Part shown: piece after piece, positions 1 through 32,736 of the stretch | Numbering within the stretch: position 1 is the first letter of the stretch | Layout: each line of letters starts with the position of its first letter | Notes under the pieces: generated by a model | What the model saw: the letters and a program-made list of their open reading frames with translations, nothing else | Databases searched by the model: none | Told to the model about the DNA's origin: nothing | Translations under genes and position numbers: made by a program | Origin: PVC group bacterium | Lineage (GTDB): Bacteria; Verrucomicrobiota; Kiritimatiellia; CAIKKV01 | Reading direction: 5' to 3' | NCBI GenBank assembly: GCA_945898015.1 | Contig: CAMDGM010000009.1 | Location: forward strand, 31,703 to 95,702 | DNA: 64,000 bases

Positions 1-864
1 ATCGCGATTCCTTTCCGCGGCCGCCCGCTGCTGGCGCACTCGCCACTCTGCGGCCGCCCGCACCACCAGTGTCACCAGCGCCAGACAGGCCAGCAGCGAG
101 GCGACAGCGTTGGCGGCGGCAAAATTGTACTCGTTGAACAGCGCTTCCACATGCAGGGGCAGCGTGTTGGTGCGGCCCCGGATATGACCCGAGACCACGG
201 ACACGGCACCAAACTCGCCCATGGCCCGCGCGTTGCACAGGATCACGCCATAGATCAAGCCCCACTTGATGTTGGGCAGGGTGACGGACCAGAAGGTGCG
301 CCAACCCGAGGCCCCCAGCAACCGCGCGGCATCCTCCTCCTCGTGGCCCTGGGATTCCATCAGGGGAATAAGCTCGCGGGCTACGAAGGGCGAGGTGACG
401 AACAGGGTGGCCAGCACCAGGCCAGGGAATGCGAAAATGACGTGAATGTCATGCTGTTCCAGCCAGGGTTGAAACCACCCCTGGCGGCCGAACAGCAACA
501 CGAAGAGCAGTCCCGCGATTACGGGCGAAACCGAAAAGGGTAGATCGACGAGAGTGGCGATCAACCGGCGGCCGCGGCAGGGGTTCTTGGCAATCGCCCA
601 TGCCAGGGCCACGCCAAACACGGTGTTGAGGGGCACCGTCACGGCGGCGACGCCCAGCGTCAGCCAGATAGCGGACAGGGCGTCGGGCTCGACAATTGCG
701 GCGGCATACACCTTCCATCCCTTTGACAGGGCCATGACAAGCACCTGAACCAGGGGCAGGAAAATGAACGCGCCGAGATAAAGGAGGGTTCCCGCCACCA
801 GCAGAAAACGGATGGGGCGTGGTTCCCGGATGGAGGGCAAGCGCGATGTGTCAGCGATTGGCAT
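1..864 (-). CDS. cysW: Sulfate ABC transporter permease CysW (3' end runs off the window)
   Basis: Not in the ORF track; translated by hand from ATG 864: MPIADTSRLPSIREPRPIRFLL...DLPFSVSPVIAGL...EEEDAARLLGA...ARAMGEFGAVSVVSGHIRGRTNTLPLHVEALFNEYNF; overlaps cysT stop; no stop before position 1. Confidence 0.92.
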   Translation of the reverse strand, partial: MPIADTSRLPSIREPRPIRFLLVAGTLLYLGAFIFLPLVQVLVMALSKGWKVYAAAIVEPDALSAIWLTLGVAAVTVPLNTVFGVALAWAIAKNPCRGRRLIATLVDLPFSVSPVIAGLLFVLLFGRQGWFQPWLEQHDIHVIFAFPGLVLATLFVTSPFVARELIPLMESQGHEEEDAARLLGASGWRTFWSVTLPNIKWGLIYGVILCNARAMGEFGAVSVVSGHIRGRTNTLPLHVEALFNEYNFAAANAVASLLACLALVTLVVRAAAEWRVRQQRAAAERNRD

Positions 865-16685: not shown

Positions 16686-17498
16686 ATGACAAAACTTCTC
16701 CAGTTTTTCCGCGAGCTATGGGAACACCGTGAATTAGTGGCCATTCTGGTCCAGCGGAACATCAAAATCAGGTATAAAGGGTCCGTGTTAGGATTCTTCT
16801 GGTCGTTGGCCAGTCCTGTTTTCTTCATCCTGATTTATGGCACGTTCCTCAAATTGATTGCGCGAGGGTTCGCGTTTGATCTACAGGTGCTGGTGACCGG
16901 CATCATTATCTGGCAGTTCATCAGCCTCTGTACGAACGATTCCCTGAGTGCGGTGGTGGGAAACGCTAATTTGATCAAAAAAACGGCGTTCCCGCGGATT
17001 ATTCTGCCCTTGGCCACCGTATTAGCGAATTTGGTCAACTTTCTCATGTCCGGGTTCGTCCTGATCGTCTATTTGCTCATGGTGCATGCGTCGGTCCAAT
17101 GGTCCGGCCTTATTTGGTTGCCGTTCATCATTTTGACCCAGGCCGCGCTCTGCTTTGGCCTGGCGGCACTGCTTTCCGCCGCAAATGTCTTTTTCCGGGA
17201 TGCCGAACACATTCTTGGCCATGCCGTCATGGCGTGGTTTTTCCTTACCCCCGTTCTCTATCCTCTGTCCCTGCCGCTTGAGCTGATCCGCGGCAAGCTT
17301 CCTGCGTTTGTAGAACCACTCTATTTCTGCAATCCCATGACGGGACTCATGCTGGCGTACCGCCGGATTCTCCTCGGCACGCCGGCGGACGTGAGCGCCT
17401 GGCTCCCGGCCTTGTCGTTCGCCGTATGCTGGGTGATTCTGTTTGCAGGAGTCGCCCTGTTCCAGAAAGTTCAACCCCGTTTTGGCGATGAATTGTAA
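16686..17498 (+). CDS. wzm: ABC-2 polysaccharide export permease
   Basis: IKIRYKGSVLGFFWSL, NANLIKKTAFPR, FFLTPVLYP, NPMT. Confidence 0.9.
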   Translation: MTKLLQFFRELWEHRELVAILVQRNIKIRYKGSVLGFFWSLASPVFFILIYGTFLKLIARGFAFDLQVLVTGIIIWQFISLCTNDSLSAVVGNANLIKKTAFPRIILPLATVLANLVNFLMSGFVLIVYLLMVHASVQWSGLIWLPFIILTQAALCFGLAALLSAANVFFRDAEHILGHAVMAWFFLTPVLYPLSLPLELIRGKLPAFVEPLYFCNPMTGLMLAYRRILLGTPADVSAWLPALSFAVCWVILFAGVALFQKVQPRFGDEL

Positions 17499-17501
17499 CG
17501 C

Positions 17502-18683
17502 ATGAAACAGGCTATTATCGAATGTCGAGATGTGAGCAAGAAGTTTCTCCTCCAGAGAAGCGGCTCGCGGACATTGAAGGCGGCCATGCTTGGCCTATTT
17601 CACCGAATGCCGCTTCGGGAGTTCTGGGCACTTCGTGATGTGTCGTTCTCCGTCGGGGAAGGGGAAACGCTCGGGATCATCGGCGCCAACGGGGCCGGGA
17701 AAAGCACGCTTCTTTCCATTCTGGCCGGCACGCTCACGCCCAGCGCGGGATCCATCCGCGCTCAGGGGAGGATTTCTTCGCTGCTGGAGCTTGGCGCCGG
17801 ATTTCATCCGGAATTGACCGGCCGGGAGAATGTTTTCTTGTGGGGCTCGATCATGGGCCTTTCGAGAGGCAAGATGCGAGACCGCTTCGATCGTATCGTG
17901 GATTTTGCGGAGTTGCGCGACTACATTGACCAGCCCGTCAAGCACTACTCCTCGGGGATGTATGTCCGCCTCGGGTTTGCCGTGGCCGTGGAAGTGGATC
18001 CGGACATCCTGCTCGTGGACGAGGTGCTGTCCGTTGGCGACCTGTCGTTCCAGAAAAAATGTCTCCAACGCATGGATGATTTCCGGAAACGCGGGAAAAC
18101 CATGTTGATTGTTTCGCACGACATGCAGACTATCCAAGCCATCAGCAGCCAAATTCTTTTCCTCAATGCGGGTCGGGTGCTGGGTCACGGCGCTCCTGAC
18201 GCCATGGTTGGGAAATACGAGTCACACCTCCAGATGGCACACGCGGGTGTGATGCGCCGGGAGTGGGGGACGCGTGAAGCCCTGATCACACAGGTTTCCT
18301 TTTGTGGCACGGATGGCCAGGCGAAAAACGAATTTTTATGGAATGAGCCCGTTCATGTGGCCATTCGCTACCAGGCGCCTCATCGCATAGAGCAGCCGGT
18401 ATTCGGTTTTTCCATCGCCGATCAATCCGGCCACCCTCTTTATGGAAACAATACCCAGAATGAGGCTGTCTCGATTCCATGCATCGAGGGGGAGGGGATC
18501 ATTCGACTCCGGTTTCCCCGATTGCCGTTTTCCAATGGAACCGTCCTGTTTTCAGTGTCACTCCACTCCGCCGACCACAAGACGCATTTTCATCATATCG
18601 ACAACGGGTATCCGCTTCAGATCTCGGCCCCGTTCGGATTCGTGGGTTCTTATCTCCCGATTCAATGGGAGGTTCCGTCATGA
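17502..18683 (+). CDS. wzt: Polysaccharide ABC transporter ATPase with Wzt C-terminal domain
   Basis: GANGAGKST, LELGAGFHPELTGRENV, YSSGMYVRLGFA, LLVDEVLSVGD. Confidence 0.92.
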   Translation: MKQAIIECRDVSKKFLLQRSGSRTLKAAMLGLFHRMPLREFWALRDVSFSVGEGETLGIIGANGAGKSTLLSILAGTLTPSAGSIRAQGRISSLLELGAGFHPELTGRENVFLWGSIMGLSRGKMRDRFDRIVDFAELRDYIDQPVKHYSSGMYVRLGFAVAVEVDPDILLVDEVLSVGDLSFQKKCLQRMDDFRKRGKTMLIVSHDMQTIQAISSQILFLNAGRVLGHGAPDAMVGKYESHLQMAHAGVMRREWGTREALITQVSFCGTDGQAKNEFLWNEPVHVAIRYQAPHRIEQPVFGFSIADQSGHPLYGNNTQNEAVSIPCIEGEGIIRLRFPRLPFSNGTVLFSVSLHSADHKTHFHHIDNGYPLQISAPFGFVGSYLPIQWEVPS

Positions 18684-19549
18684 CTGTCACGCTTCCCGAT
18701 CTTGCCGCCGATCCGACGGTGATGGCGACCCTTCGCCGGGCCCTGCGGGAGGATATCGGTTCTGGCGACGCCACAACCCGGGCATTGATTCCCCCCCGGC
18801 TACACGCCTTCGGGCAGATCTTGGCCCGCTCCTCCTGCACGGTGGCTGGAACTGGAGTCGCTCGTTCCGTTTTTCGGCAACTCGACCAAGCCATGTCGTG
18901 TGATATTCTAATTCCGGATGGCACCCAGGCTGGTCCTGGAGATGTGATTATGACGCTTCGCGGAAATGCGGGGAAAATGCTGACCGCGGAACGCGTGGCC
19001 CTCAATTTCATGCAACGGATGACCGGCATCGCCTCCCTGACGGCGCAATTCGTTGACCGAGTCAAGCCGTATCGGGTCAAGATTCTCGATACGCGCAAGA
19101 CCACGCCAACCCTCCGCGTTTTCGAAAAGTATGCCGTCCGCTGTGGCGGAGGAACGAATCACCGGATGGGGCTTTTTGACATGGGTCTGCTCAAAGATAA
19201 TCACCGGTTTCTCTGGCGACAGGCAGGCATTCTGGACCTTGCCGCCGCAGTCCGTCGAATCCGTGAAACACACCCGGGGTTACCGATTGAGGTGGAGGTG
19301 GAAAATCTCGCCGACATGAAGACCGTGTTGAAAGAAAAGCCCGAGTGGATCATGCTCGACAATATGACGCTGGATGACATGCGAGCATGCGTCCGGATTG
19401 GTGATGGACAAGCCAAGCTGGAAGCATCCGGAGGGGTTACGCTGGAACGCGTGGGTGCCATTGCCGCCACGGGAGTGGATGCCATTTCAATCGGGGCTTT
19501 AACCCATTCCGCTCCGGCCGCCGATCTCTCTCTGGAGCTTTCGGCATGA
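18680..19549 (+). CDS. nadC: Nicotinate-nucleotide diphosphorylase (carboxylating)
   Basis: ALREDIGSGDATT, LDTRKTTP, NHRMGL, MLDN, EASGG, SIGALTHS; ATG 18680 overlaps wzt stop. Confidence 0.96.
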   Translation: MTVTLPDLAADPTVMATLRRALREDIGSGDATTRALIPPRLHAFGQILARSSCTVAGTGVARSVFRQLDQAMSCDILIPDGTQAGPGDVIMTLRGNAGKMLTAERVALNFMQRMTGIASLTAQFVDRVKPYRVKILDTRKTTPTLRVFEKYAVRCGGGTNHRMGLFDMGLLKDNHRFLWRQAGILDLAAAVRRIRETHPGLPIEVEVENLADMKTVLKEKPEWIMLDNMTLDDMRACVRIGDGQAKLEASGGVTLERVGAIAATGVDAISIGALTHSAPAADLSLELSA

Positions 19550-20325
19550 GTGCTAAAGCGTCAACTGCCCCCCTGATATTAGTTGATGTGGGGAATACCC
19601 GTTGTTCTGTGGCTGTGACGAACGGTCGTCGTATACGGCGGCTTGGCGCTGTGTTGACCCGTGAGGCCACTTTTGCCACGGTCGCTCTGGTTTTGAAAAA
19701 AGCCGCCGATCGCAACGTTTTCGCCGGCGCCGTGTTATGCTCCGTGGTGCCGGCTGTCCATGCGATCTGGATGAAAGCGCTCGCCGCTGTGAGTCGGACG
19801 CCACCCATGCTGGTAACAAACAAATTGGATTTTGGAATAGCGATTCGTTACCCCCGGCCGGAGACAATCGGGGCCGATCGATTGGTTAATGCCGCTGCCG
19901 CGGCGGCCCGTTTTGGAACACCGGTTGTGGCTCTGGATTTTGGGACGGCATTGACCTGTGATGTCGTCTCGCGTGAAGGCGCCTTTGTCGGTGGCATCAT
20001 CGCACCGGGTCTACGGTTGCTGACGGATTATCTTCACGAGCGGACGGCTCTGCTTCCCGAAGTTCCTTTTGAACCGTCTCGACGAATGATTGGACGGAGC
20101 ACCGCAGAGGCCATGAGGATTGGAGCCTGGGTCGGGTACCGTGGCCTTGTGGGAGAATTAATGAGGGGGCTGAAACGCGAATTGGGGCGTGGAACACGAT
20201 TTTGCGCGACAGGCGGGGACGTGAGTGTCCTGGCAGCCATGCTCGGACCGACCTGTTCGATAATTCCGGATCTGACATTCGACGGCATGCGACTGGTTTT
20301 TGTGCGGAATACGCCAAAAGGGTAA
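19546..20325 (+). CDS. coaX: Type III pantothenate kinase
   Basis: VDVGNT, IGADRL, DFGTALTCD, GGIIAPG, ATGG. Confidence 0.95.
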   Translation: MSAKASTAPLILVDVGNTRCSVAVTNGRRIRRLGAVLTREATFATVALVLKKAADRNVFAGAVLCSVVPAVHAIWMKALAAVSRTPPMLVTNKLDFGIAIRYPRPETIGADRLVNAAAAAARFGTPVVALDFGTALTCDVVSREGAFVGGIIAPGLRLLTDYLHERTALLPEVPFEPSRRMIGRSTAEAMRIGAWVGYRGLVGELMRGLKRELGRGTRFCATGGDVSVLAAMLGPTCSIIPDLTFDGMRLVFVRNTPKG

Positions 20326-20366
20326 GCTGGAGTTGGGATGTCAATAGGCCACACGCGGGGTTCGGC

Positions 20367-23246
20367 ATGCGGCAGTCCATAAAAATTGATTTTCATTGTC
20401 ATTCCTCTTTTAGCGATGGCGAATGGGATCCTGATAAAATTGCCCAAACCTGCTCGGCGGCTGGCGTGCGCTATGCCGCTTTGACGGATCATACCACGTT
20501 GGATGGATTGGACCGTTTTGAGGCGTCGTGCGAGCGATACGGGGTGGGGGTTGTGAATGGACTTGAACTGCCCGTATACCAGGGAAAACGCGAAGTCCAC
20601 CTTCTTTGTTATGGGTTTGACCGAACGAACGCCGCCGTGCTGAGATCGGTAAAGGCGGTGCGTGAGGCGCTTATTCTCAAAAGTGCCCCGTACGCCTTAT
20701 TTGAAAAAAAAACCATTTCGGAATTAATCCACCAGATCCATCAAGCGGGCGGAATCGTACTTCTGGCGCATCCCCTTGTGACGGAGCCTGATATTGTCAA
20801 ACTGGAGTCCCTTCTTGCGGACTTAATACAGGCCGGATTAGACGGCATTGAGGTCTATCACCCCACCGCCACCTCCGCCCAGCAGACTTATCTGCGTGAA
20901 CTTGCTGAAAAAAATGTCTTCGTTGCTTCAGGAGGGACCGACCATCATGGGTTCACTGGAGTTGAGGGTCCTGAGATGGGCGTTGAAATCCCCCTTGACG
21001 CCTGGGAATCCTTCCGTGACGTTCTGGTCAAGCGACGGAAGCAGGTGCAGCAGGAATGCGAATCCCGAAGCCGGACAGCCCGGCCCGAATTTCCGGCCAC
21101 CCGGCAATCCGGACGGATGCGCATGTTGATTTCGATGGCGTTACCCGCGATAGCCGTTGTTTTTCTCTTCGCGATAGCCCTGTTTGGCTTTTTTCTTCCG
21201 GGATATGAAAACGCGCTGATGGATCGAAAGCGGGAAATGATTCGCGAGTTGACCCGGACGGTGTGGAGCCTGCTCGACGAGGCGGAAAAGAATGTGCAAG
21301 CCGGACTGATATCGCCCGAGTCTGCCAGGATGCAAGTGGTTGAGCGAGTCCGATCCTTACGCTATGGACGTGAAGGGAAGGACTATTTTTGGATTCAAGA
21401 TCTGGCTCCCCGGATGCTCATGCATCCCTATCGTCATGACCTGGAAGGTCAGGATTTGGCCGCATTCAAAGATTCTCGGGGCATTTGTATTTTCACGGTA
21501 TTTGCCGACAAGGTTCGTCGAGACCGTGAAGGCTATGTGGACTATGTGTGGCAATGGAAGGATGATCCGTCACGAGTGGAAGCCAAAGAGTCGTATATCC
21601 GGCTCTTTGAGCCGTGGGGCTGGGTGATTGGGACTGGGTTGTATGTGCATGATGTGGTTGCCGAAATTCACATCCTGAAGCTGAACCTGTTCTATGTCAT
21701 GGGCGGTACTATTGCGATTTTGATTATGCTTCTGGCGGTTATGTTGAGGGGGGGCTGGAGAGCAGATCAGCGTCGAGCAACCGCCGAAATGCGTCTTCAG
21801 GAATCCCATGAGCGCTATCTTTCGTTGGTTCGAGCCTCCGCCGAGGGAGTCCTTTTTGTTCGGAATTTCCGATGCGTCTATGCCAATCCTATCTTTCTTG
21901 AATTGGCGGGGTGCGACTTGGAGGAGCTGCCACTGCTCGATTGCCAGGAGCTTTTCCCCGGACTTTTGCAGGAATTCTCGAGGAGCATGAATGCCAGCGC
22001 CGATGTGTACGTGGAGGCCCTGCTTCAGAGGCGCGATGGCGTCGACTTGAAGTGTCGAGTCGCCCGGAAAGCGATGTCCGAAAAGGGATCGGGTAGTTTT
22101 GTGGTTTTGGTACGCCGCCCTGAAGAGGCCGGCGTCCGGTTGTCCGCCAGACCCGATGGTCTATTAAAACGGCTTTTGAATCTACCCTCCTCGGCTGCGG
22201 AGGATATTGCTCGGGAAATCGGCATGGCGGAAACCGACGACCAAGTCGTGGGCCTTTGCCGTGGTGTGCCCGGATTGGTAAACGCCATGCTGGAGAGTGG
22301 CGCCTCCCCTGGCGCCATGGCGGGCATGATTTCCTCCATCACGGATTCGGCCACAAGCCGATTTGTTGAAATAGCTCAAAAGGAGTTAGGCCCCGCTCCT
22401 GTAGGATTTTCATTTGTGGCATTGGGCAGTCAGGGCCGAAAGGAGCAGACTCTTTTCACGGATCAGGATAACGCCATCATTTATGAGGCCCAAGGCCAAG
22501 ATGTAGACGGGTCGCGGCAGCACTATTTTTCTGCCTTAGCGTTTCGTGTATGCGAGGCCCTGACACGATCCGGTTATCGGGATTGCAAGGGCTTGGTCAT
22601 GGCCAGCAATCCAAAATGGTGTCAACCGGTGGACGTCTGGAAAGGGTATTTCACGAATTGGATTTCCAAAGCGGACGAACATGAAATGATGGAGGTTGGG
22701 ACATTTCTTGATTTGCGCTGCGTGAAAGGCGACGAAAACCTGGTCCAACTTCTTCGGACGCACATCCAAAACGAGACTGCGCGGACGCCTTTGTTCTACA
22801 CGCAAGCGGCCCGGACCGCTCTTCTTTTCAAGAGTCCGCTACGCCTTTTTGGGAATATTGTCACGGCGGGGAGTTCAAAAGAAAAGTCCGGATATCTCGA
22901 CCTGAAGACGGTCATGATGCCGATTGTCAGCTTTGCACGTCTTTATGCGCTCCATCGAGAGAGCGCTTGCACATCCACCTTGGAGCGGCTCTCGGCGCTG
23001 TCCGATAAAGGCGTCCTTTTGCCGTCGCAACATCATGACCTCGTGACCGCCTTTGAAACTTTATTGCGGTTGAGGCTGAGACATCAAGTGATGACGATTC
23101 AAAAAGGAGACGAACCGGACAACCTGATAGCGCCATCGTGTCTGGGGCATATTGATGAAGCCGTCCTGAAGGAATGTTTCAAGGAAATCGATCAGATCCA
23201 GGATAGAATTAACCGGGATTTTCTGGGGGGCGCGTTGAAACTCTAA
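20367..23246 (+). CDS. Membrane sensor fusion: PHP phosphoesterase - TM - sCache_2 - TM - PAS-like - DUF294 nucleotidyltransferase - DUF294_C
   Basis: PHP: DFHCHSSFSDG, LTDH, AHP, GLDGIEVYH, GGTDHHG; Cache: DYFWIQD...MLMHP...YVDYVWQWK...KESY...WGWVIGTGLY; NTase: ALGSQGRKEQTLFTDQDNAII, CKGLVMASNPKW; two hydrophobic helices; start set at ATG 20367. Confidence 0.88.
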   Translation: MRQSIKIDFHCHSSFSDGEWDPDKIAQTCSAAGVRYAALTDHTTLDGLDRFEASCERYGVGVVNGLELPVYQGKREVHLLCYGFDRTNAAVLRSVKAVREALILKSAPYALFEKKTISELIHQIHQAGGIVLLAHPLVTEPDIVKLESLLADLIQAGLDGIEVYHPTATSAQQTYLRELAEKNVFVASGGTDHHGFTGVEGPEMGVEIPLDAWESFRDVLVKRRKQVQQECESRSRTARPEFPATRQSGRMRMLISMALPAIAVVFLFAIALFGFFLPGYENALMDRKREMIRELTRTVWSLLDEAEKNVQAGLISPESARMQVVERVRSLRYGREGKDYFWIQDLAPRMLMHPYRHDLEGQDLAAFKDSRGICIFTVFADKVRRDREGYVDYVWQWKDDPSRVEAKESYIRLFEPWGWVIGTGLYVHDVVAEIHILKLNLFYVMGGTIAILIMLLAVMLRGGWRADQRRATAEMRLQESHERYLSLVRASAEGVLFVRNFRCVYANPIFLELAGCDLEELPLLDCQELFPGLLQEFSRSMNASADVYVEALLQRRDGVDLKCRVARKAMSEKGSGSFVVLVRRPEEAGVRLSARPDGLLKRLLNLPSSAAEDIAREIGMAETDDQVVGLCRGVPGLVNAMLESGASPGAMAGMISSITDSATSRFVEIAQKELGPAPVGFSFVALGSQGRKEQTLFTDQDNAIIYEAQGQDVDGSRQHYFSALAFRVCEALTRSGYRDCKGLVMASNPKWCQPVDVWKGYFTNWISKADEHEMMEVGTFLDLRCVKGDENLVQLLRTHIQNETARTPLFYTQAARTALLFKSPLRLFGNIVTAGSSKEKSGYLDLKTVMMPIVSFARLYALHRESACTSTLERLSALSDKGVLLPSQHHDLVTAFETLLRLRLRHQVMTIQKGDEPDNLIAPSCLGHIDEAVLKECFKEIDQIQDRINRDFLGGALKL

Positions 23247-23271
23247 ATTGTCCTTGCTTCATATCCCGTTT

Positions 23272-23312
23272 TTGCTTAAACATAACTTTGGTTGTAAAAT
23301 ACATTTATAACC
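23272..23312 (+). promoter_or_regulatory. Sigma70-like promoter of DUF485-actP with overlapping palindromic operator
   Basis: TTGCTT-17 nt-TAAAAT (23272-23300); inverted repeat GGTTGTAAA-N5-TTTATAACC (23290-23312). Confidence 0.55.
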
Positions 23313-23330
23313 TCTTATCTGGAGCAACTG

Positions 23331-23552
23331 ATGAGTAGTCCGGTGAATATGCGACGTAAAGCCTTTCTTGATTTTGGACTCTTCGGCCTTTTTTTCGTGT
23401 TCTACATGGGGGCCGCTATCGTTCAAACTCCTTTGGGTAAAAATGTGGCAACTGTGCCCGTGCTGGGTATGCCATTTGGCTTGCTCATGTCGCTTGCCAT
23501 ATTCCCGGTTTCGTGGCTCATCATCATCATCTGGTTCTGGAAAGCGAAGTAA
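23331..23552 (+). CDS. DUF485 (YjcH-like) small membrane protein, ActP partner
   Basis: 73 aa, two hydrophobic helices, FFVFY and GMPFGLLMSLAIF; directly upstream of an SSS transporter. Confidence 0.8.
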   Translation: MSSPVNMRRKAFLDFGLFGLFFVFYMGAAIVQTPLGKNVATVPVLGMPFGLLMSLAIFPVSWLIIIIWFWKAK

Positions 23553-23557
23553 TCACC

Positions 23558-25264
23558 ATGTTAAATGCACTGTGCCATAATCCTGGACCGCTTGCCGTGC
23601 TGACAACTCCTGTCGCCGAATCGTCGGGTCCCTCATCTCTCAATGCCGGGATCGTTATAGGGTTTATCCTGTTTTTTGTAATTGCCAGCATCGTAATCAC
23701 ATGGTGGACGAGCCGCTCCAGTAAGTCCGCCGGAGATTTTTATGTGGCAGGAAAAGGGGTCCCGTGGATTCAGGTCGGGATTGCCATGGTCGGCAGCTAT
23801 CTTTCGGCAGCGAGTTTTCTGGGATGTGCCGGGGATATCGGTGTTTTTGGCATCGACTCCATCTGGTTGTCGATTGGTTTTTTCGGGGGCTATATGGCGG
23901 TGTTGCTGCTGATTGCCGGCCCCTTGCGTAATGTGGGGTCGTACACGGTTGCCGGCGCGCTCCATCGGCGTTATCCCGATGACAAAATCAAGCTGTCGAT
24001 CATGGTTTGTACGGTCATCATTTCAACGTTTTATCTCGTGCCCCAGATGCTGGGCGCCGGATTGCTCTTCGAAATGCTGCTCGGTTGGAACTTCATTGCG
24101 GTTATTATCGGGCTCGGCATTCTCATGAGCGTCTACATTATTTTTGGCGGTATGAAGTCGACTCTTTACAATCAAGTCATTCAAGCGGTCTTTTTGTGGG
24201 TAGCCATGGTGGTGCTGGTCGTGATGGCCTATTTCATCGTAGGTCACGGTTCTTTTTCAGGAATTTTGGCGACCGCAACTCAGGCGGTTCCGCCCATTCT
24301 TGCGGGGAAGAATCCCGCTGTTGTTACCGCCATTGCCCACTTGCCCGCGGATCAGGCGATCATGGTCGCCCGGGAAATGATGCCTTCCGCAGATAGCGTG
24401 ATGAGTATTGGCGTCAAAAGCAACAACACGCTTGCCATGATCAGCACCGTGATTGCCCTGATTTTCGGGACCGCCGGCCTTCCACATATTTTGATCATGT
24501 TTTTTACCGTGCCCAGCGCCAAGGCGGCCAAGAAAAGTGTGACATTTTGCATCGCCGCTTTGGGGATCTTTTATTTGTGCGCCATTGTTTTGGGATTCCT
24601 GCTATTCCCGGCTATTTATCCGAAGCTGGTGAGCTGGATTTCACAGGGGCCGACTGGTGTTGGGTTAGCCAAAAACATGGCAGTCTTGGAGATTAGCCAG
24701 ATGGTGGGGGGGCCCTGGCTGATGGCCATTGGCGCCGCCGGCGCCGTGGCCGCCATTCTCTCTACCGCGGCAGGATTGATGATTACGGTCGCATCCTCCA
24801 TCAGTCATGATCTTTATAAAGTCTATATTAATCCGGCGGCAACCGAGAAACAGGAACTGGGCATCGCTAAAATCACCACGCTTCTGATGTCCGCCATTGC
24901 GGTCGGTTTGGCGGTTTTGCTCAAAAAGGAAAACATTGCATGGCTGGTCATGCTGGCGTTCAGCATTGCTGCCAGTGCTATTTTTCCCGCCATGTTGGCG
25001 ACGCTCTGGTGGAAACGTGCCACCCGGCAAGGCGTTATTGTCAGCATTCTGACGGGATTAACGATTTCGGTGCTGTTCATCATCATGTTGCTGACCGGCG
25101 TCAAGAATGACCCTCTATTTGGACTTCCTACCGCTGGTGGACCAGGTGTTTTCGGCGTCACAGGTGCGTTTTTGGCGCTTATTGTGGTAAGCCTTTTGAC
25201 CCGTGACACGGGCAAGGACTCAGCCGAGTTCCTGGCACTGGCACATAAATCCGAGGACGATTGA
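23558..25264 (+). CDS. actP: Cation/acetate (monocarboxylate) symporter, ActP-type solute:sodium symporter
   Basis: DFYVAG, YLSAASFLG, FYLVPQMLGAG, FGGMKST, FGTAGLPHILIMFFTVP, AILSTAAGL, SHDLY; start ATG 23558. Confidence 0.88.
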   Translation: MLNALCHNPGPLAVLTTPVAESSGPSSLNAGIVIGFILFFVIASIVITWWTSRSSKSAGDFYVAGKGVPWIQVGIAMVGSYLSAASFLGCAGDIGVFGIDSIWLSIGFFGGYMAVLLLIAGPLRNVGSYTVAGALHRRYPDDKIKLSIMVCTVIISTFYLVPQMLGAGLLFEMLLGWNFIAVIIGLGILMSVYIIFGGMKSTLYNQVIQAVFLWVAMVVLVVMAYFIVGHGSFSGILATATQAVPPILAGKNPAVVTAIAHLPADQAIMVAREMMPSADSVMSIGVKSNNTLAMISTVIALIFGTAGLPHILIMFFTVPSAKAAKKSVTFCIAALGIFYLCAIVLGFLLFPAIYPKLVSWISQGPTGVGLAKNMAVLEISQMVGGPWLMAIGAAGAVAAILSTAAGLMITVASSISHDLYKVYINPAATEKQELGIAKITTLLMSAIAVGLAVLLKKENIAWLVMLAFSIAASAIFPAMLATLWWKRATRQGVIVSILTGLTISVLFIIMLLTGVKNDPLFGLPTAGGPGVFGVTGAFLALIVVSLLTRDTGKDSAEFLALAHKSEDD

Positions 25265-25328
25265 GGGATTGGCTAATTCCACGCTCGCGCTACCGGTCGA
25301 GGCGCGGCATCAGGGATAGGAGGATAAA

Positions 25329-26756
25329 ATGGGCCACGCCCTGATCGCCAGCTTATTTCTACTTCTGTCGTGTTTCCCGGCATGGGCGGATCTTTTGAAT
25401 TCCACCCCTCCGGCGTACCCGGTCAAACTCATTTTCATCCATCATTCCACCGGAGAAAATCTTCTGCGCAATGATTATGGCCGCTTGGGGATTGCGCTTA
25501 AAACCAACAACTACTTCGTCAGCGACACGAATTATGGGTGGGGACCGGATTCTATCGGTGACCGCACTGACATTCCCGATTGGATCGAATGGTTCCGGTC
25601 CACTTCCACGACAACGGTTGTGGATGCGCTTTTAGCGGAATACGGGAAGCACGCATCGTATTCACGGCTCGCCGCCGATCCTGGGGGTCAAAACTCGATT
25701 ATACTCGTCAAATCCTGTTTCCCCAACTCTAACCTGGAAGGCAATCCCAATGATCCGCCTTCTTCGGAGGGGTGGTTGACGGTGGGTCACGCCAAGTGGG
25801 TTTACAATCAGCTATTGACCTTTTCCCGCGCGCATCCGGACAAACTGTTTGTTGTGATCACCGCGCCGCCCGTCCAGGATCCGACTTATGCTCTTAACGC
25901 CCGCGCGTTCAATAACTGGCTCGTTAATCATTGGCTTGTGGACAATCAATATCCATTTAAAAACGTAGCGGTTTTCGATTTTTACAATGTGCTGACTGAT
26001 CCGCAGGCCCATCACCGATATAACCCCGCCACGGCGACCATCGAGCATAAGGTCGTATCCGGGCACAACACCTCCGCTTTTGCCTCATCGCCAGATGATG
26101 ACCATCCTAATGTGGCGGGAAGCCAAAAAGCGACATCGGAATTAGTGCCCTTGCTGAACATCTTTTACAATAGCTGGAAAACAGCAAGTCGTGTCCGCAC
26201 GACAACCGCATATTCCTCTCCCGTGCTGGACGGTTGGATTCTTGAGTCCTCAGAAAACAGCAGCATCGGGGGAGCGGTTAATAATTCGGCCGATACGTTA
26301 AGGGTTGGAGACGACATGGCAAATAGGCAATACCGAAGCATTTTGTCATTCAGTTTGAATTTGCCCACCAATGCCGTCATGGCCACCGCTAAGCTTAAGA
26401 TCAAAACGCATTCACTCGTCGGGACGGATCCGTTTGCGACACACGGAAAACTGCTGGTGGATATCCATAAATTTCGTTTCGGGTCAAGCCCCGCTCTTTT
26501 AAATGAGGATTTTCTGGCGGCCGCTAATCAGGCCGCCGCGGCCTCGCTTGCAGGGTCTCCGGTCAATGGTTGGCTGACAGCGGGAATCGCAAGCTCGGGC
26601 CTTCCCTATATTAACTCGAAGGGGATCACGCAATTCCGGCTGCGTTTTTCGAAAGGCGATAACGACGATTTCAACGAAGACTTCTATGGTATATATAGCG
26701 GCCATACCGCTTCAACCAATCAACCCAAGTTGATCATCCAGTACTATGTTCCGTAA
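25329..26756 (+). CDS. Secreted protein: SGNH-like hydrolase domain plus DNRLRE-like C-terminal domain
   Basis: Signal peptide (PAWA); IFIHHSTG, KSCFP, DDDHPN; C-terminal DGWILESSE...TQFRLRF...PKLIIQYYVP. Confidence 0.65.
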   Translation: MGHALIASLFLLLSCFPAWADLLNSTPPAYPVKLIFIHHSTGENLLRNDYGRLGIALKTNNYFVSDTNYGWGPDSIGDRTDIPDWIEWFRSTSTTTVVDALLAEYGKHASYSRLAADPGGQNSIILVKSCFPNSNLEGNPNDPPSSEGWLTVGHAKWVYNQLLTFSRAHPDKLFVVITAPPVQDPTYALNARAFNNWLVNHWLVDNQYPFKNVAVFDFYNVLTDPQAHHRYNPATATIEHKVVSGHNTSAFASSPDDDHPNVAGSQKATSELVPLLNIFYNSWKTASRVRTTTAYSSPVLDGWILESSENSSIGGAVNNSADTLRVGDDMANRQYRSILSFSLNLPTNAVMATAKLKIKTHSLVGTDPFATHGKLLVDIHKFRFGSSPALLNEDFLAAANQAAAASLAGSPVNGWLTAGIASSGLPYINSKGITQFRLRFSKGDNDDFNEDFYGIYSGHTASTNQPKLIIQYYVP

Positions 26757-26766
26757 GGAGAATCGA

Positions 26767-27858
26767 ATGGCAACCAACCGATATGCGGTGATCATGTCCG
26801 GAGGGCGAGGGGAGCGTTTCTGGCCGCTCAGCACGATCCGCCGTCCCAAGCAACTTCTCTCCCTTATCGGCGGGAAGCCCTTGCTGGCCGCCGCCGTGGA
26901 TCGGCTTGAGGGCTTCATTCCCAAGGACCGGATCTTTATTGTGACGAGCCGGGAATTGGTCGCTCCCACCCGCGAGATCATGCCCGACTTCCCGGCCGCT
27001 CAGATTGTCGGCGAGCCCTGCCGCCGGGATACGGCTGCCGCCGTAGCGTTGGGTTCGGTTTTGGTTGCCATGCGTGATCCGTCTGCCTCATTTTGCGTCC
27101 TGACCGCAGACCAGGTGATCCCGGATACGCAGAAGTTCCAATCGGCCTTAAACCGTTGCTTTGACCTCGCCGAGGTCGACGAAGCACTTGTCACCATGGG
27201 TATCAATCCAGTTTTCCCCAGCACGGGATTTGGCTATATTGAAGCAGGCGAGCCCTTGCCGGGCAAGGCGAACGAGGTGCCGGCCTTCAAAGCGGTTAGG
27301 TTTGTGGAAAAACCGGATGCGGCCACGGCGGCGGCCTATGTCAAAAATGGCCGCTTTTATTGGAATTCAGGGATGTTTTTCTGGAAGGTTTCTTCGATTC
27401 AGCAAGCCTTCCGAAAATTTTGCGCCCCTTTGGGTGCGCTTTGTCGTGATCTCGGCGACTGCCAAAATATGAAATCGCTGGCATCCCGACTGGAAAGCGC
27501 TTACGCCCCGCTTCAGCGTATCTCCATTGATTATGCCGTGATGGAAAAAGCGTCACCGATCGTCGTGGTCAAGGGGGATTTCGGGTGGGACGACGTCGGA
27601 TCATGGCCGGCTATCGCGAACCATTTCCCCAAAGATGTCCACGGAAACGTGCTGATTGGTCCGAATGTGACGCTTGATTCGAAAGACAATGTGCTCGTTT
27701 CTCCCGATGGCCGCTTGACCGTCCTGCTTGGAATTGATGACCTGATCGTGGTTCAGGCGCCTCAGGTCACGTTGATCTGCCGGAAGGATCGGGCCCAAGA
27801 TGTTAAAAAAATCGTGCAGCTGCTGGACCAGCAGGATGCCTACAAGTCTTTGATGTAA
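26767..27858 (+). CDS. manC: Mannose-1-phosphate guanylyltransferase
   Basis: IMSGGRGERFWPLS, PKQLL, EPCRRDTA, FVEKPD, WNSGMF, ISIDYAVMEK, WDDVGSW. Confidence 0.94.
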   Translation: MATNRYAVIMSGGRGERFWPLSTIRRPKQLLSLIGGKPLLAAAVDRLEGFIPKDRIFIVTSRELVAPTREIMPDFPAAQIVGEPCRRDTAAAVALGSVLVAMRDPSASFCVLTADQVIPDTQKFQSALNRCFDLAEVDEALVTMGINPVFPSTGFGYIEAGEPLPGKANEVPAFKAVRFVEKPDAATAAAYVKNGRFYWNSGMFFWKVSSIQQAFRKFCAPLGALCRDLGDCQNMKSLASRLESAYAPLQRISIDYAVMEKASPIVVVKGDFGWDDVGSWPAIANHFPKDVHGNVLIGPNVTLDSKDNVLVSPDGRLTVLLGIDDLIVVQAPQVTLICRKDRAQDVKKIVQLLDQQDAYKSLM

Positions 27859-31629: not shown

Positions 31630-32736
31630 ATGCGCTTTTTTGAAAAACGGCGATTGAGAAAAAAGGCGGACGCTCTTTTGCAAGGAGCCAAACTGGCGCG
31701 GAATATGCGCGAGGATATTGCGCCCGGGGCTGACTTGGACCGACTCTCGCTGGCTGAGAACGCCGTTAAAGCGGCCGTCCGGAAATCCGATTCCGCGGCC
31801 TTCGAGCAAGCCGCCCAGTCGTTAAGTGACATGGCCCAAGCTGTGTATCCAGCCCCACGGCACCCGGTCGTACGGGAATGGATCGAGTTGATTGTCGTGG
31901 CGCTTGCCGTTGCCATGGGATTCCGGACTTATTTGCTTCAACCGTTCAAAATCCCAACCGGATCCATGCAGCCGACTTTGTACGGAATTCACTACAGCCC
32001 TGACCGTGCGCCCGCGATATTTCGCGATTTTTTGCCGCTTCGGATGACGCGGTGGCTTGTCACAGGCGAAATGCCGATCGATTTCCGTGCTCCGAATGGA
32101 GGCCGGGTGCTCATTGATCCGCGCATACCTGCGCGGTACCCGGATGACCGCTGGATCATCGGAGGAGTTCCTTTCCCCACGTTAATCCCGAAAAACCTCT
32201 CGCGCCACGTGGAGCCCGGAGATACGGTGGTGCCGGGCCAGCTTTTGGCCTCGGGTGTCCGGATTGCCGGCGATCACCTGTTTGTCAACAGAATGGCCTG
32301 GAACTTTCGACGGCCTAGGGTAGGGGAAGTGATGGTTTTCAGCACTCACGGCATGGACCCTACGCAAATCACCCCCGACACGCATTACATCAAACGTCTG
32401 GCGGGCAGGCCGGTTGATCGGCTACGCATTGATCCCCCCATGCTGCTCGTGAATGGAACGCCAACGGATAAGACGCCGGGGATGAAAAAGGTGGTCACCC
32501 GGCAGACGGGTTATAATTTCGGTTATCAAAATGGACAACGTCTGCCGGATGTTCAATTCATGCGGACCTCCAGTGAAGAATATGCGGTCCCCGTCGGTCA
32601 TTATTTTGGTCTCGGCGACAACACGATGAACAGCCGGGACAGTCGCTATTTCGGACCGATACCGGAAGACAAGCTGATGGGACCGGCTTTGCTTGTGTAT
32701 TGGCCGCTGAGCCTTCGATGGGGCTTGATTGATTAG
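31630..32736 (+). CDS. lepB: Signal peptidase I
   Basis: FKIPTGSMQPTL, GDHLFV, YIKRL, GDNTMNSRDSRYFG; follows lepA. Confidence 0.95.
   Translation: MRFFEKRRLRKKADALLQGAKLARNMREDIAPGADLDRLSLAENAVKAAVRKSDSAAFEQAAQSLSDMAQAVYPAPRHPVVREWIELIVVALAVAMGFRTYLLQPFKIPTGSMQPTLYGIHYSPDRAPAIFRDFLPLRMTRWLVTGEMPIDFRAPNGGRVLIDPRIPARYPDDRWIIGGVPFPTLIPKNLSRHVEPGDTVVPGQLLASGVRIAGDHLFVNRMAWNFRRPRVGEVMVFSTHGMDPTQITPDTHYIKRLAGRPVDRLRIDPPMLLVNGTPTDKTPGMKKVVTRQTGYNFGYQNGQRLPDVQFMRTSSEEYAVPVGHYFGLGDNTMNSRDSRYFGPIPEDKLMGPALLVYWPLSLRWGLID

Follow-up and report, generated by a model that had tools for sequence, protein, structure and literature searches.

A widespread membrane receptor joining a carboxylate-type Cache sensor to a DUF294 nucleotidyltransferase and a PHP phosphoesterase, with a possible role in the control of a neighbouring symporter

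What could a bacterium achieve with a single membrane protein in which a sensor facing the outside is placed between an enzyme that might attach nucleotides and an enzyme that might take them off? The question is raised by one gene in a stretch of 64,000 nucleotides (hereafter, the window) from a PVC group bacterium of the Kiritimatiellia, namely positions 31,703 to 95,702 of contig CAMDGM010000009.1 (assembly GCA_945898015.1). The gene, located at positions 20367–23246 of the window, encodes 959 residues in which a PHP phosphoesterase domain, a first transmembrane segment (TM1), an sCache_2 sensor, a second transmembrane segment (TM2), a PAS domain, a DUF294 nucleotidyltransferase domain, and a DUF294_C domain follow one another. 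In a sequence-only reading of the window, the product was described as a one-component receptor uniting the writer and the eraser of a nucleotide modification. The computational analysis presented here shows that the architecture is widespread, strongly supports an obligatory pairing of the DUF294 transferase with a phosphoesterase of interchangeable type, and places the gene beside a symporter of the monocarboxylate type. It is tentatively proposed that this transmembrane one-component receptor may run a carboxylate-gated cycle of nucleotidylylation and removal, which would control the neighbouring symporter.

The reading frame and the anatomy described earlier were borne out. Translation gives the 959-residue product, an identical protein is on record in the databases, and Pfam, hydropathy, and modelling agree on every domain that had been named (Table 1). 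The positions held to within a few residues, except that the catalytic motif of DUF294 starts at 22425 and not at 22424. The program-made list of open reading frames (ORFs) lets the receptor frame reach back to a TTG at 20202, and this extension overlaps the upstream pantothenate kinase gene coaX (19546–20325); the ATG at 20367 corresponds to the N-termini of the aligned homologues and of the identical database protein. The hydropathy scan reveals exactly two hydrophobic segments, one on either side of the Cache domain, and the 20 residues ahead of TM1 contain six lysines or arginines vs one acidic residue. The two segments and this strongly positive stretch indicate that the PHP and transferase domains are cytoplasmic and that the Cache domain lies outside, as had been assumed. 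In the full-length AlphaFold model (mean predicted local distance difference test, pLDDT, 84.8; predicted template modelling score, pTM, 0.46), the PHP core of residues 1–209 is followed, after the membrane part, by PAS strands at residues 494–583, a low-confidence linker (587–605), and the transferase module.

The transferase module is most informative when its structure is considered. G687, S688, R691, D699, Q700, D701, D782, and R784 are invariant in an alignment of 70 receptor homologues, on which all conservation figures given here are based, so the DUF294 motif is intact, as the sequence-only reading had stated. The profile search of the PDB gave no solved structure matching the DUF294 part by sequence. 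The AlphaFold2 (AF2) model of residues 590–959, made from the 70-row alignment, reached a pLDDT of 91.3 and a pTM of 0.90. Foldseek returned four matches for it at E ≤ 0.001, belonging to three entries: the N-domain of GlnE (1v4a, E 5.5e-9), the AMPylation domain of Legionella DrrA/SidM (6yx5_B, E 1.4e-8), and the C-domain of GlnE (3k7d chains B and A, E 1.1e-7 and 2.1e-7). The same three led a wide structural search of 48,161 chains, with Z-scores of 28.3 for 1v4a (root-mean-square deviation, rmsd, 3.5; 321 residues aligned), 25.1 for 3k7d, and 24.8 for 6yx5, and with 301–321 aligned residues. Below them came a DrrA fragment (3nku_B, Z 10.9) and the next distinct entry at 9.6; HEPN domains, which match DUF294_C, were found at about Z 8–9.6 and aminoglycoside transferases at 8.0 or less. 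At the level of sequence, the family profile compared by hhalign with E. coli GlnE and with GlnD gave E 0.11 in each case, too weak to stand alone; the GlnE match covers GlnE residues 128–386 and sets GSQGRKEQTLFTDQD on the equivalent GlnE motif G..G..E....[ST]DxD. The Pfam DUF294 model recognizes residues 43–125 of E. coli GlnD with 26.3 bits (cut-off 21), and DUF294_C was grouped with the C-terminal domains of GlnD and GlnE (PMC3710099). Neither Pfam GlnE (PF03710) nor GlnD_UR_UTase (PF08335) matches the receptor, and cNMP_binding and CBS, of the N-terminal part of classical COG2905 proteins, also gave no Pfam match in it. By its modelled fold, the module is thus assigned to the GlnD/GlnE/DrrA branch of Pol-beta enzymes, outside the Pfam GlnE and GlnD families, which agrees with the GlnD/GlnE-like character attributed to DUF294 before. 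The characterised enzymes of this branch transfer nucleotides onto proteins or remove them from proteins. The source genome, which is 89.6% complete, contains one DUF294 gene. An invariant cysteine, C740, was also observed in the transferase domain.

The PHP domain is, by its conserved residues, very probably an active metal-dependent phosphoesterase. The nine metal ligands of RNase AM, H13, H15, D20, H45, E72, H83, H198, D255, and H257 (PMC9410882), align with H10, H12, D17, H42, E67, H78, H135, D192, and H194 of the receptor, and all nine are invariant or at least 90% conserved, in accordance with the intact metal site noticed earlier. The PHP family profile finds 3e0f, 3o0f, the 3',5'-nucleoside bisphosphate phosphatase Cv1693 (2yb1), and the RNase AM of V. 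cholerae (9etk) and E. coli (7ug9) in the PDB with E 1e-31 to 1e-34, and NCBIfam points to 3',5'-bisphosphate phosphatase (5.8e-31) and RNase RNM (1.3e-22), both under cut-off. RNase AM (YciV/TrpH) and Cv1693, whose substrates are pAp and short 5'-phosphorylated RNAs, have the PHP core and the trinuclear metal site in common with the receptor, but they also contain an insertion domain of about 70 residues (107–176 in RNase AM), which together with the core shapes a cavity for the 5'-phosphate (PMC9410882). This domain is missing here. The alignments to the solved enzymes skip about 55–60 of their residues, receptor residues 104–106 bridge residues 101 and 162 of the 2yb1 chain, and the model has only a helix (89–106) and a loop in this place. 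The best fold match is 7ug9 (Foldseek TMt 0.84, rmsd 1.9), a crystal structure whose ordered part is limited to the PHP core, the insertion domain being absent from the model (PMC9410882). Because the insertion domain is missing, R201 of RNase AM is aligned with V138, and the equivalog scores are far under cut-off (NF041577, 107.7 bits vs 400; NF047791, 80.3 vs 375), the PHP domain is judged from its sequence not to be an orthologue of RNase AM or of the pAp phosphatase. Its active site, being open, may accommodate larger substrates.

For the sensor, the available structures allow a prediction of the ligand. The closest solved relatives of the Cache domain are Adeh_3718 (4k08) and PscD (5g4y), and the modelled domain superposes on 4k08 with an rmsd of 1.0 at 37% identity. 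In PscD, propionate receives hydrogen bonds from Tyr90, His103, Tyr143, and Lys156 and lies between Trp92 and Trp145, with Phe126 shutting the pocket, and the same seven contact residues were described in McpP and Adeh_3718, sensors of acetate and of C2/C3 compounds (PMC5062169). All seven PscD residues (Y90, W92, H103, F126, Y143, W145, K156) are identical in the receptor according to the HMMER alignment (Y340, W342, H353, F376, Y393, W395, K407), where each is invariant in the 70 sequences. Since these contacts are kept and the model superposes on 4k08, a C2/C3 monocarboxylate is the predicted ligand, which is consistent with the short-carboxylate type of Cache domain named in the sequence-only reading. 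The sensor domains of PscD, McpP, and Adeh_3718 (36–37% identity, rmsd 1.0–1.5) are, however, connected to a methyl-accepting chemotaxis protein signalling domain, whereas in the receptor enzymes flank the Cache domain on either cytoplasmic side. The PAS domain that follows TM2 is a weak match in this protein and a strong one in a long-form homologue, and Foldseek matches of the region include PpsR, DosP, FixL, and MmoS. Two cysteines were observed in it, C563 (22053–22055), which is invariant, and C503 (21873–21875), which is at least 90% conserved; the conserved cysteines hint at a redox or cofactor input besides the Cache ligand.

Whether such a fusion is real has to be considered for any gene known from a metagenome-assembled genome, in this case one with 4.9% contamination besides its incompleteness. 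The junction of PHP and TM1 might be an assembly chimera, or the PHP domain an inactive relic. A homologue search in a word index of 5.8 billion proteins gave 1208 matches at E ≤ 1e-3 among 8000 scored candidates, and PHP, Cache, DUF294, and DUF294_C occur together in 117 of 120 homologue clusters among the matches listed. The homologues fall into two size classes, of about 930–1016 and about 1106–1247 residues, the longer one with an additional CBS pair before DUF294 (seen in the long-form homologue P0077). Relatives are encoded in 349 genomes when one genome per GTDB species is scanned. From these species-level loci, 79 were taken for the analysis of neighbourhoods, all of them metagenome-derived or uncultured records; the match begins at query residue 1–7 in 76 of them, and contig ends truncate the remaining three. 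A Logan contig of 13,081 nt, from a separate assembly of a lake-water run that may be the source sample, covers 20300–23600 with one difference, and a contig of a strain about 95% identical, from another study, crosses the PHP/TM1/Cache junction at 21040–21687. The second assembly and the second strain thus both span the junction that had been singled out for a chimera check. Together with the conservation of all nine PHP ligands, the clusters and loci effectively refute an artefact or a decayed fusion, which is left with a negligible probability. A search for shorter forms gave 52 matches; most of these lie on short contigs and are thus probably truncated at a contig end, and there is no sign of a split gene.

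The record titles of the 79 loci name at least 13 phylum-level groups. The closest relatives (67–69% identity) come from Kiritimatiellia, Lentisphaerae/Victivallis, and Verrucomicrobiota, and further titles name Fibrobacterota, Latescibacterota, Cloacimonadota, Clostridia, Spirochaetales, Planctomycetota, Chloroflexota, Armatimonadota, Omnitrophota, Sumerlaeaceae, Thermoanaerobaculaceae, and one Bathyarchaeota bin. With the domains confirmed by profile models and this spread, the architecture is widespread and automatically annotated in public records, and it is not rare. The member in the bin labelled Bathyarchaeota is full-length and lies on a 181-kb contig (L037, CAWDRR010000003.1); either mis-binning or transfer into an archaeon would account for it. 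Four related genomes (G003, G016, G026, G032) have two or three paralogous receptors each, which differ in form: one form is short and has PHP, another is long and has both PHP and CBS, and a third lacks PHP.

The forms without PHP bring in the second line of evidence. The receptor family was found in 20 of 41 genomes (40 relatives and the source genome), some of its members being without the first 240–260 residues or so, and nine PHP-less loci from the same order were fetched. In all nine, the receptor has the order TM-Cache-TM-PAS-DUF294 and no PHP-like sequence occurs anywhere in the locus. In eight of the nine, an ORF of 256–301 residues overlaps the receptor stop or begins within about 50 nt after it on the same strand, and all eight products are calcineurin-like metallophosphoesterases (Metallophos/Metallophos_2, E 1e-8 to 1e-12; 44–93% mutual identity). 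This partner has no tblastn match in the 79 PHP-bearing loci, the window, or the whole source genome; it is weakly similar to the YfcE phosphodiesterase family (3e-5) and has no sequence relative in the PDB at E ≤ 0.1. In the ninth locus, the same slot holds a 326-residue ORF (L093:8507-9487) without any Pfam match even at E ≤ 5, which may be a fourth kind of partner.

The soluble DUF294 proteins show a third arrangement. They were represented by six annotated plasmid records, and the two proteins scanned have the order cNMP-CBS-CBS-DUF294-DUF294_C, the form regarded as usual in the sequence-only reading. In five of the six records (Paracoccus, Vibrio, Hymenobacter, Ruegeria, and Shinella, but not Skermanella), a gene annotated as “3'-5' exonuclease” or “exonuclease domain” is adjacent or two genes away, and each of the three exonucleases scanned from these five records matches RNase_T. 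With four partner exonucleases as queries, tblastn (E ≤ 1e-4) found nothing similar in the window or in any of the 79 PHP-bearing and nine PHP-less loci; the matches in the source genome are on other contigs only (C12, C16). The fused PHP domain fills the place of the separate RNase_T exonuclease gene. In four alphaproteobacterial plasmids, a hypothetical protein of 165–193 residues follows the soluble DUF294 gene (L094:7061-7558, L098:5540-6058, L099:5568-6098, L097:5496-6077), and the exonuclease comes next in three of them, directly in L098 and L099 and after a response-regulator gene in L094. These four proteins are 25–41% identical to each other, and they have no Pfam match and no tblastn match in the source genome or the receptor loci; they could be an adaptor or a substrate of the soluble system. 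Taken together, an obligatory pairing of the DUF294 transferase with a phosphoesterase, the type of which is interchangeable, is strongly supported. The sharing of one slot by three unrelated phosphoesterase folds beside one transferase speaks for a system in which a nucleotide phosphodiester has to be both formed and cleaved.

The strongest functional clue is the conserved pair of genes beside the receptor, which the earlier reading had overlooked. In the window, the receptor is followed by a small protein with two predicted TM segments, DUF485/YjcH-like and presumed to be the partner of the symporter, and by an SSF symporter of the ActP/MctC monocarboxylate type, whose NCBIfam matches (ActP 2.2e-101, MctC 1.2e-98, VC_2705 family 7.6e-85) are all under cut-off. 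By tblastn, 59 of the 79 loci have SSF within 1.5 kb of the receptor; where each flank measures at least 2.5 kb (48 loci), the number is 40. Its placement in the 59 loci varies: 40 are upstream on the same strand, five downstream on the same strand as here, nine convergent, and five divergent. An unbiased clustering of 652 flanking ORFs gave two conserved families only, SSF (57 of 80 loci, the window included) and the DUF485-like protein of about 100 residues, found beside SSF in 32 loci and in a further five-locus cluster to which the window belongs. SSF is also adjacent in nine of nine PHP-less loci. A functional link of the receptor to the symporter is therefore probable. Complex prediction for the symporter and the transferase module gave 0.00 in two runs, which is evidence neither for nor against contact.

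Several single loci deserve mention with regard to the symporter. In L008, SSF genes lie on both sides of the receptor. In L085–L087 and L091, the SSF protein is the orthologue of that of the window (79–81% identical), yet it adjoins a PHP-less receptor only about 40–50% identical; some relatives have thus exchanged the type of receptor beside the same transporter. The neighbours in SSF-less loci are unrelated. They include a glutamine synthetase gene (notable as the enzyme targeted by GlnE) convergent to the receptor at 180 nt (L045:4833-6821) and an adenylate/guanylate cyclase gene 24 nt upstream of it (L026:1275-2660), each a single case. The acetyl-CoA synthetase AcsA was considered as a target and set aside: the best match in the source genome has 42 bits against a cut-off of 725, which at the completeness of this genome does not prove absence, and Acs is not a conserved neighbour. 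A single DUF294 gene and no AcsA above the cut-off make a model centred on Acs unlikely in the source organism.

Comparison with known systems shows where the receptor may belong. The nearest are the soluble COG2905 proteins of Proteobacteria, PP_0354 and PA3233, with the RNase_T-type proteins PP_0353 and PA3232. They are alike in DUF294 and DUF294_C (tblastn aligns the P. denitrificans DUF294 over 337 residues at 30% identity), in the adjoining SSF gene and small subunit, and in having a phosphoesterase as partner, and their CBS pair is still kept in the long form of the receptor; DUF4212, SSF, and DUF294 genes stand in a row in four of the six plasmid records. They differ in sensing by cytoplasmic cNMP and CBS domains, whereas the receptor has an extracytoplasmic Cache domain between two TM segments and a PAS domain, and in having a separate RNase_T gene and a DUF4212 small subunit in place of the fused PHP and the DUF485-like neighbour. 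It is proposed that the receptor corresponds, in membrane-bound and fused form, to the soluble pairs of cNMP-CBS-DUF294 and RNase_T proteins that lie beside SSF symporters in Proteobacteria. In Pseudomonas, PP_0353 and PP_0354 (with cNMP, two CBS domains, and the transferase) are described as belonging to the genes whose dependence on the short-chain-fatty-acid regulator MxtR/ErdR is strongest; deletion of either gene impairs growth on propionate and that of PP_0353 also on pyruvate, and their function was called unclear (10.64898/2026.09.07.749794). PA3232–PA3235, which include ActP, were reported to increase about 16-fold on propionate (10.1101/2022.08.25.505149), and Price et al. noted that a DUF4212 and SSF transporter of lactate and D-alanine is cofit with a nearby COG2905/“RNase T domain” gene (10.1101/072470). 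A literature search, in which supplementary files were not covered, brought up no publication that treats the PHP-Cache-DUF294 architecture or the biochemistry of DUF294, in line with the earlier remark that the architecture is uncharacterised. It likewise gave no description of the three-way substitution of phosphoesterases; the DUF294/COG2905 family itself is already known.

With respect to the arrangement of functions, GlnD, the PII uridylyltransferase and uridylyl-removing enzyme, is the best analogy. Pfam confirms in the E. coli protein the nucleotidyltransferase and HD hydrolase referred to in the sequence-only reading, so that GlnD and the receptor each have in one chain a Pol-beta transferase with a helical domain, a metal-dependent phosphohydrolase, and sensor domains. 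By this analogy, the receptor would work most like GlnD. The hydrolase of GlnD is, however, HD and its sensors are ACT domains, whereas the receptor has PHP, Cache, and PAS and is membrane-bound; GlnD works with PII in nitrogen metabolism, and the clustering of flanking ORFs gave no such link for the receptor. GlnE (glutamine synthetase adenylyltransferase) and the AMPylation domain of DrrA, the closest solved folds to residues 590–959, have the motif in common with the receptor in a weak alignment, but sequence identity is 12% and Pfam GlnE gives no match; removal is performed in GlnE by a second transferase domain and would be performed here by a phosphoesterase. Both GlnE and DrrA modify tyrosines. 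Finally, bacterial family X DNA polymerases (PolX) also combine a Pol-beta-superfamily transferase and PHP in one chain, and their PHP domains are weak sequence matches of the receptor PHP (3au2, 3b0x, E 6e-4). The order of their domains is reversed relative to the receptor, in which the membrane sensor lies between the two, and the receptor transferase is GlnE-like and not a templated polymerase. In PolX, the PHP domain edits the product of the polymerase.

The mechanism proposed for the receptor consists of several steps. Judging from the binding-site residues, the ligand of the extracytoplasmic sCache_2 domain is likely to be a C2/C3 monocarboxylate such as acetate, glycolate, propionate, or pyruvate. 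A change of conformation through Cache, TM2, and PAS would then set the activity of the cytoplasmic DUF294/DUF294_C module, by its modelled fold a nucleotidyltransferase of the GlnD/GlnE/DrrA type. The module would move a nucleoside monophosphate (NMP) from a nucleoside triphosphate to a hydroxyl of the target, most likely on a protein, a step given about an even chance. The PHP domain, located on the same face of the membrane and connected by a flexible linker, would be the opposing phosphodiesterase and take the nucleotide off as NMP; that the two enzymes act on the same bond is rather likely. The cycle would govern monocarboxylate uptake by the neighbouring DUF485-SSF symporter. The target that is modified seems unlikely to be the symporter or its small subunit. 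Equally doubtful is the most specific form of the proposal, in which, in the receptor and its soluble relatives, a sensor-gated GlnD-like enzyme marks the symporter or its small subunit and the mark is taken off again by a phosphoesterase of exchangeable type (PHP, Metallophos, or RNase_T), as a signalling output not recognised so far. The writer and eraser put forward by the sequence-only reading are supported by the anatomy and by the complementary distribution of PHP, Metallophos, and RNase_T, while nucleotidyl transfer, a protein substrate, and hydrolysis of the product stay at the level of prediction.

A number of observations weigh against the proposed mechanism. The assignment to the GlnD/GlnE/DrrA class is mainly based on the model, the profile-level link in sequence being marginal, and the direction of the reaction is not readable from the structure, because the best fold match, the N-domain of GlnE, removes nucleotides and does not write them. 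The pTM of the full-length model means that the placement of the domains relative to each other is not predicted, and since the linker between PHP and TM1 is variable and of low confidence, PHP need not be regulated by the ligand. As RNase_T, PHP, and Metallophos families all include nucleases, a nucleic acid or an oligonucleotide fits equally well as the substrate. With regard to the output, 20 of the 79 loci have no SSF match in the available DNA, eight of these with at least 2.5 kb on both flanks (one, L073, has a divergent SSF gene that tblastn missed), and the clustering of flanking ORFs revealed no conserved candidate for a protein target besides the transporter pair.

These points bear differently on the other explanations that can be considered. 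The DUF294 module, triggered by the carboxylate, might make a small nucleotide signal, such as a linear or cyclic oligonucleotide or a conjugate, to be degraded by the PHP, Metallophos, or RNase_T partner and read by the symporter or another effector. The Pol-beta fold includes messenger synthases, and DncV (in Foldseek only) and Hailong HalB are among the weak structural matches; moreover, all three partner families hold hydrolases of small nucleotides, as described for RNase AM and Cv1693 acting on pAp (PMC9410882) and suggested by the likeness of the Metallophos partner to YfcE, and the transporter is the only conserved protein nearby that could be a target. However, DncV has a Foldseek probability of 0.08 and HalB a Z of 6.3, far under the Z of 25–28 for GlnE and DrrA, the helical DUF294_C domain is the one common to GlnD and GlnE (PMC3710099), and no messenger-receptor domain is conserved in the neighbourhood, so that a messenger is considered unlikely. 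The nuclease character of the partners leads to another possibility, in which the 3' end of an RNA (for example, the symporter mRNA or a small RNA) is extended by the transferase with untemplated nucleotides and trimmed by the nuclease, providing post-transcriptional control of the symporter. The RNase_T exonuclease and a PHP domain related to the 5'-3' exoribonuclease RNase AM would suit it. Yet the structural matches listed (50 rows of the wide search, and Foldseek) include no RNA-tailing enzyme, be it a CCA-adding enzyme, a poly(A) polymerase, or another kind, RNase_T works on RNA in the 3'-5' direction and RNase AM in the 5'-3' direction, so that they are not obvious equivalents there, the receptor PHP is without the insertion domain that forms the 5'-phosphate pocket described for RNase AM, and the tethering of both enzymes to the membrane would be unexpected for RNA modification; this explanation is quite improbable.

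The roles of the two enzymes might also be the reverse of those proposed, with the GlnE-like domain mainly removing nucleotides by phosphorolysis, as the N-domain of GlnE does, and PHP hydrolysing the released nucleotide or, for instance, pAp. The deadenylylating N-domain is indeed the best fold match (Z 28.3, vs 25.1 for the adenylylating domain), and the weak hhalign match lies within the GlnE residues 128–386 mentioned above. The gap in Z is small, however, and DrrA, a writer, reaches 24.8; no separate writer is conserved nearby, the genome has a single DUF294 gene, and the complementary distribution of the phosphoesterases suggests that the opposing activity comes from them. Such a reversal is thus very unlikely, and a nucleotidylylation cycle with DUF294 as the writer and the phosphoesterase as the eraser is the preferred, if tentative, explanation.

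The rest of the neighbourhood adds little to this explanation. Upstream, at 16686–18683, the window contains an ABC-2 permease and a Wzt-type ATPase with a Wzt_C domain (polysaccharide exporter). The listed nadC ORF (18479–19549) overlaps the end of the exporter and its QRPTase domain begins only at residue 97, so the true start of nadC is probably later. A relation of the receptor to CoA or pAp chemistry through the upstream coaX and nadC was rejected, as these genes occur in just two of the 79 related loci, and is treated as coincidence. Downstream of the symporter, a 475-residue ORF (25329–26756), with no Pfam match and a weak DNRLRE-domain match (7.4e-4), was found in one of the 79 loci and probably lies outside the system. 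A scan of 18300–26900 for promoters and terminators gave 3 promoter-like sequences vs 6.5 expected and 17 terminator-like sequences vs 11.3 expected, and thus no usable operon borders.

Table 1. Receptor gene, its parts, and the adjoining transporter genes, in positions of the window.
Feature	Residues	Position (nt)	Strand	Evidence
Whole receptor gene	1–959	20367..23246	+	Single open frame, 959 aa and stop; identical 959-aa database protein on record
PHP phosphoesterase core, predicted cytoplasmic, without the RNase AM/Cv1693 insertion domain	1–209	20367..20993	+	Pfam 1.2e-11; PDB profiles; Foldseek
PHP, Pfam match	8–84			E 1.2e-11
Helix, then low-confidence tether, between PHP and TM1	210–237; 238–247	20994..21107	+	AF2 full-length model; pLDDT <50 at 238–247; alignment variable there
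TM1	about 253–277	21123..21197	+	Kyte-Doolittle maximum 2.73; single helix 249–311 running on into the Cache domain (model)
Extracytoplasmic sCache_2 sensor	280–434	21204..21668	+	Pfam; PDB 4k08 2.8e-32, 5g4y 7.4e-31; Foldseek 4k08 TMt 0.95, rmsd 1.0
sCache_2, Pfam match	284–434			E 8.8e-32; 110.6 bits vs cut-off 25
TM2	about 441–462	21687..21752	+	Hydropathy maximum 2.44; cytoplasmic helix continues to about 489 (single helix 427–489 in model)
PAS domain	about 482–585	21810..22121	+	PAS_8 1.2e-3; TIGR00229 2.1e-3; model strands 494–583; Foldseek PAS structures
PAS_8, Pfam match	482–536			E 1.2e-3; weak, under cut-off
DUF294 (PF03445), Pol-beta-type nucleotidyltransferase domain	634–771	22266..22679	+	Pfam 1.8e-42, 144.9 bits vs gathering score 21; model of 590–959
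Catalytic motif G687-S-Q-G-R-K-E-Q-T-L-F-T-D699-Q-D701-N702	687–702	22425..22472	+	Invariant residues; weak GlnE alignment
Third invariant acid	D782	22710-22712	+	Invariant in 70 sequences
DUF294_C (PF10335), helical, HEPN/KNTase_C-like	809–952	22791..23222	+	Pfam 2.6e-36, 125.1 bits vs gathering score 22.5; included in GlnE/DrrA structural alignments
Small two-TM protein, 73 aa, DUF485/YjcH-like, presumed small partner of symporter		23331..23552	+	Pfam DUF485 6.7e-4, under cut-off
SSF symporter, ActP/MctC monocarboxylate type		23558..25264	+	Pfam SSF 2e-70; NCBIfam

The significance of the receptor lies in what it may reveal about a family of wide occurrence. DUF294/COG2905 proteins and their exonuclease partners are reported among the most strongly induced genes of the acetate and short-chain-fatty-acid regulon of Pseudomonas and are cofit with SSF transporters. 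The fused receptor can serve as a Rosetta stone for them, since it ties the transferase physically to a phosphoesterase and to a sensor with a predictable ligand, and genomically to an ActP/MctC-like symporter, and the three-way substitution of PHP, Metallophos, and RNase_T narrows the chemistry to the making and breaking of one nucleotide phosphodiester. If the proposed control of the symporter is true, then the external substrate itself would switch its transport post-translationally, and COG2905/DUF294 would gain a function. Should the target be a protein, the cycle would represent a new class of receptor output and, for many uncultured anaerobic lineages, a new way of controlling a transporter.

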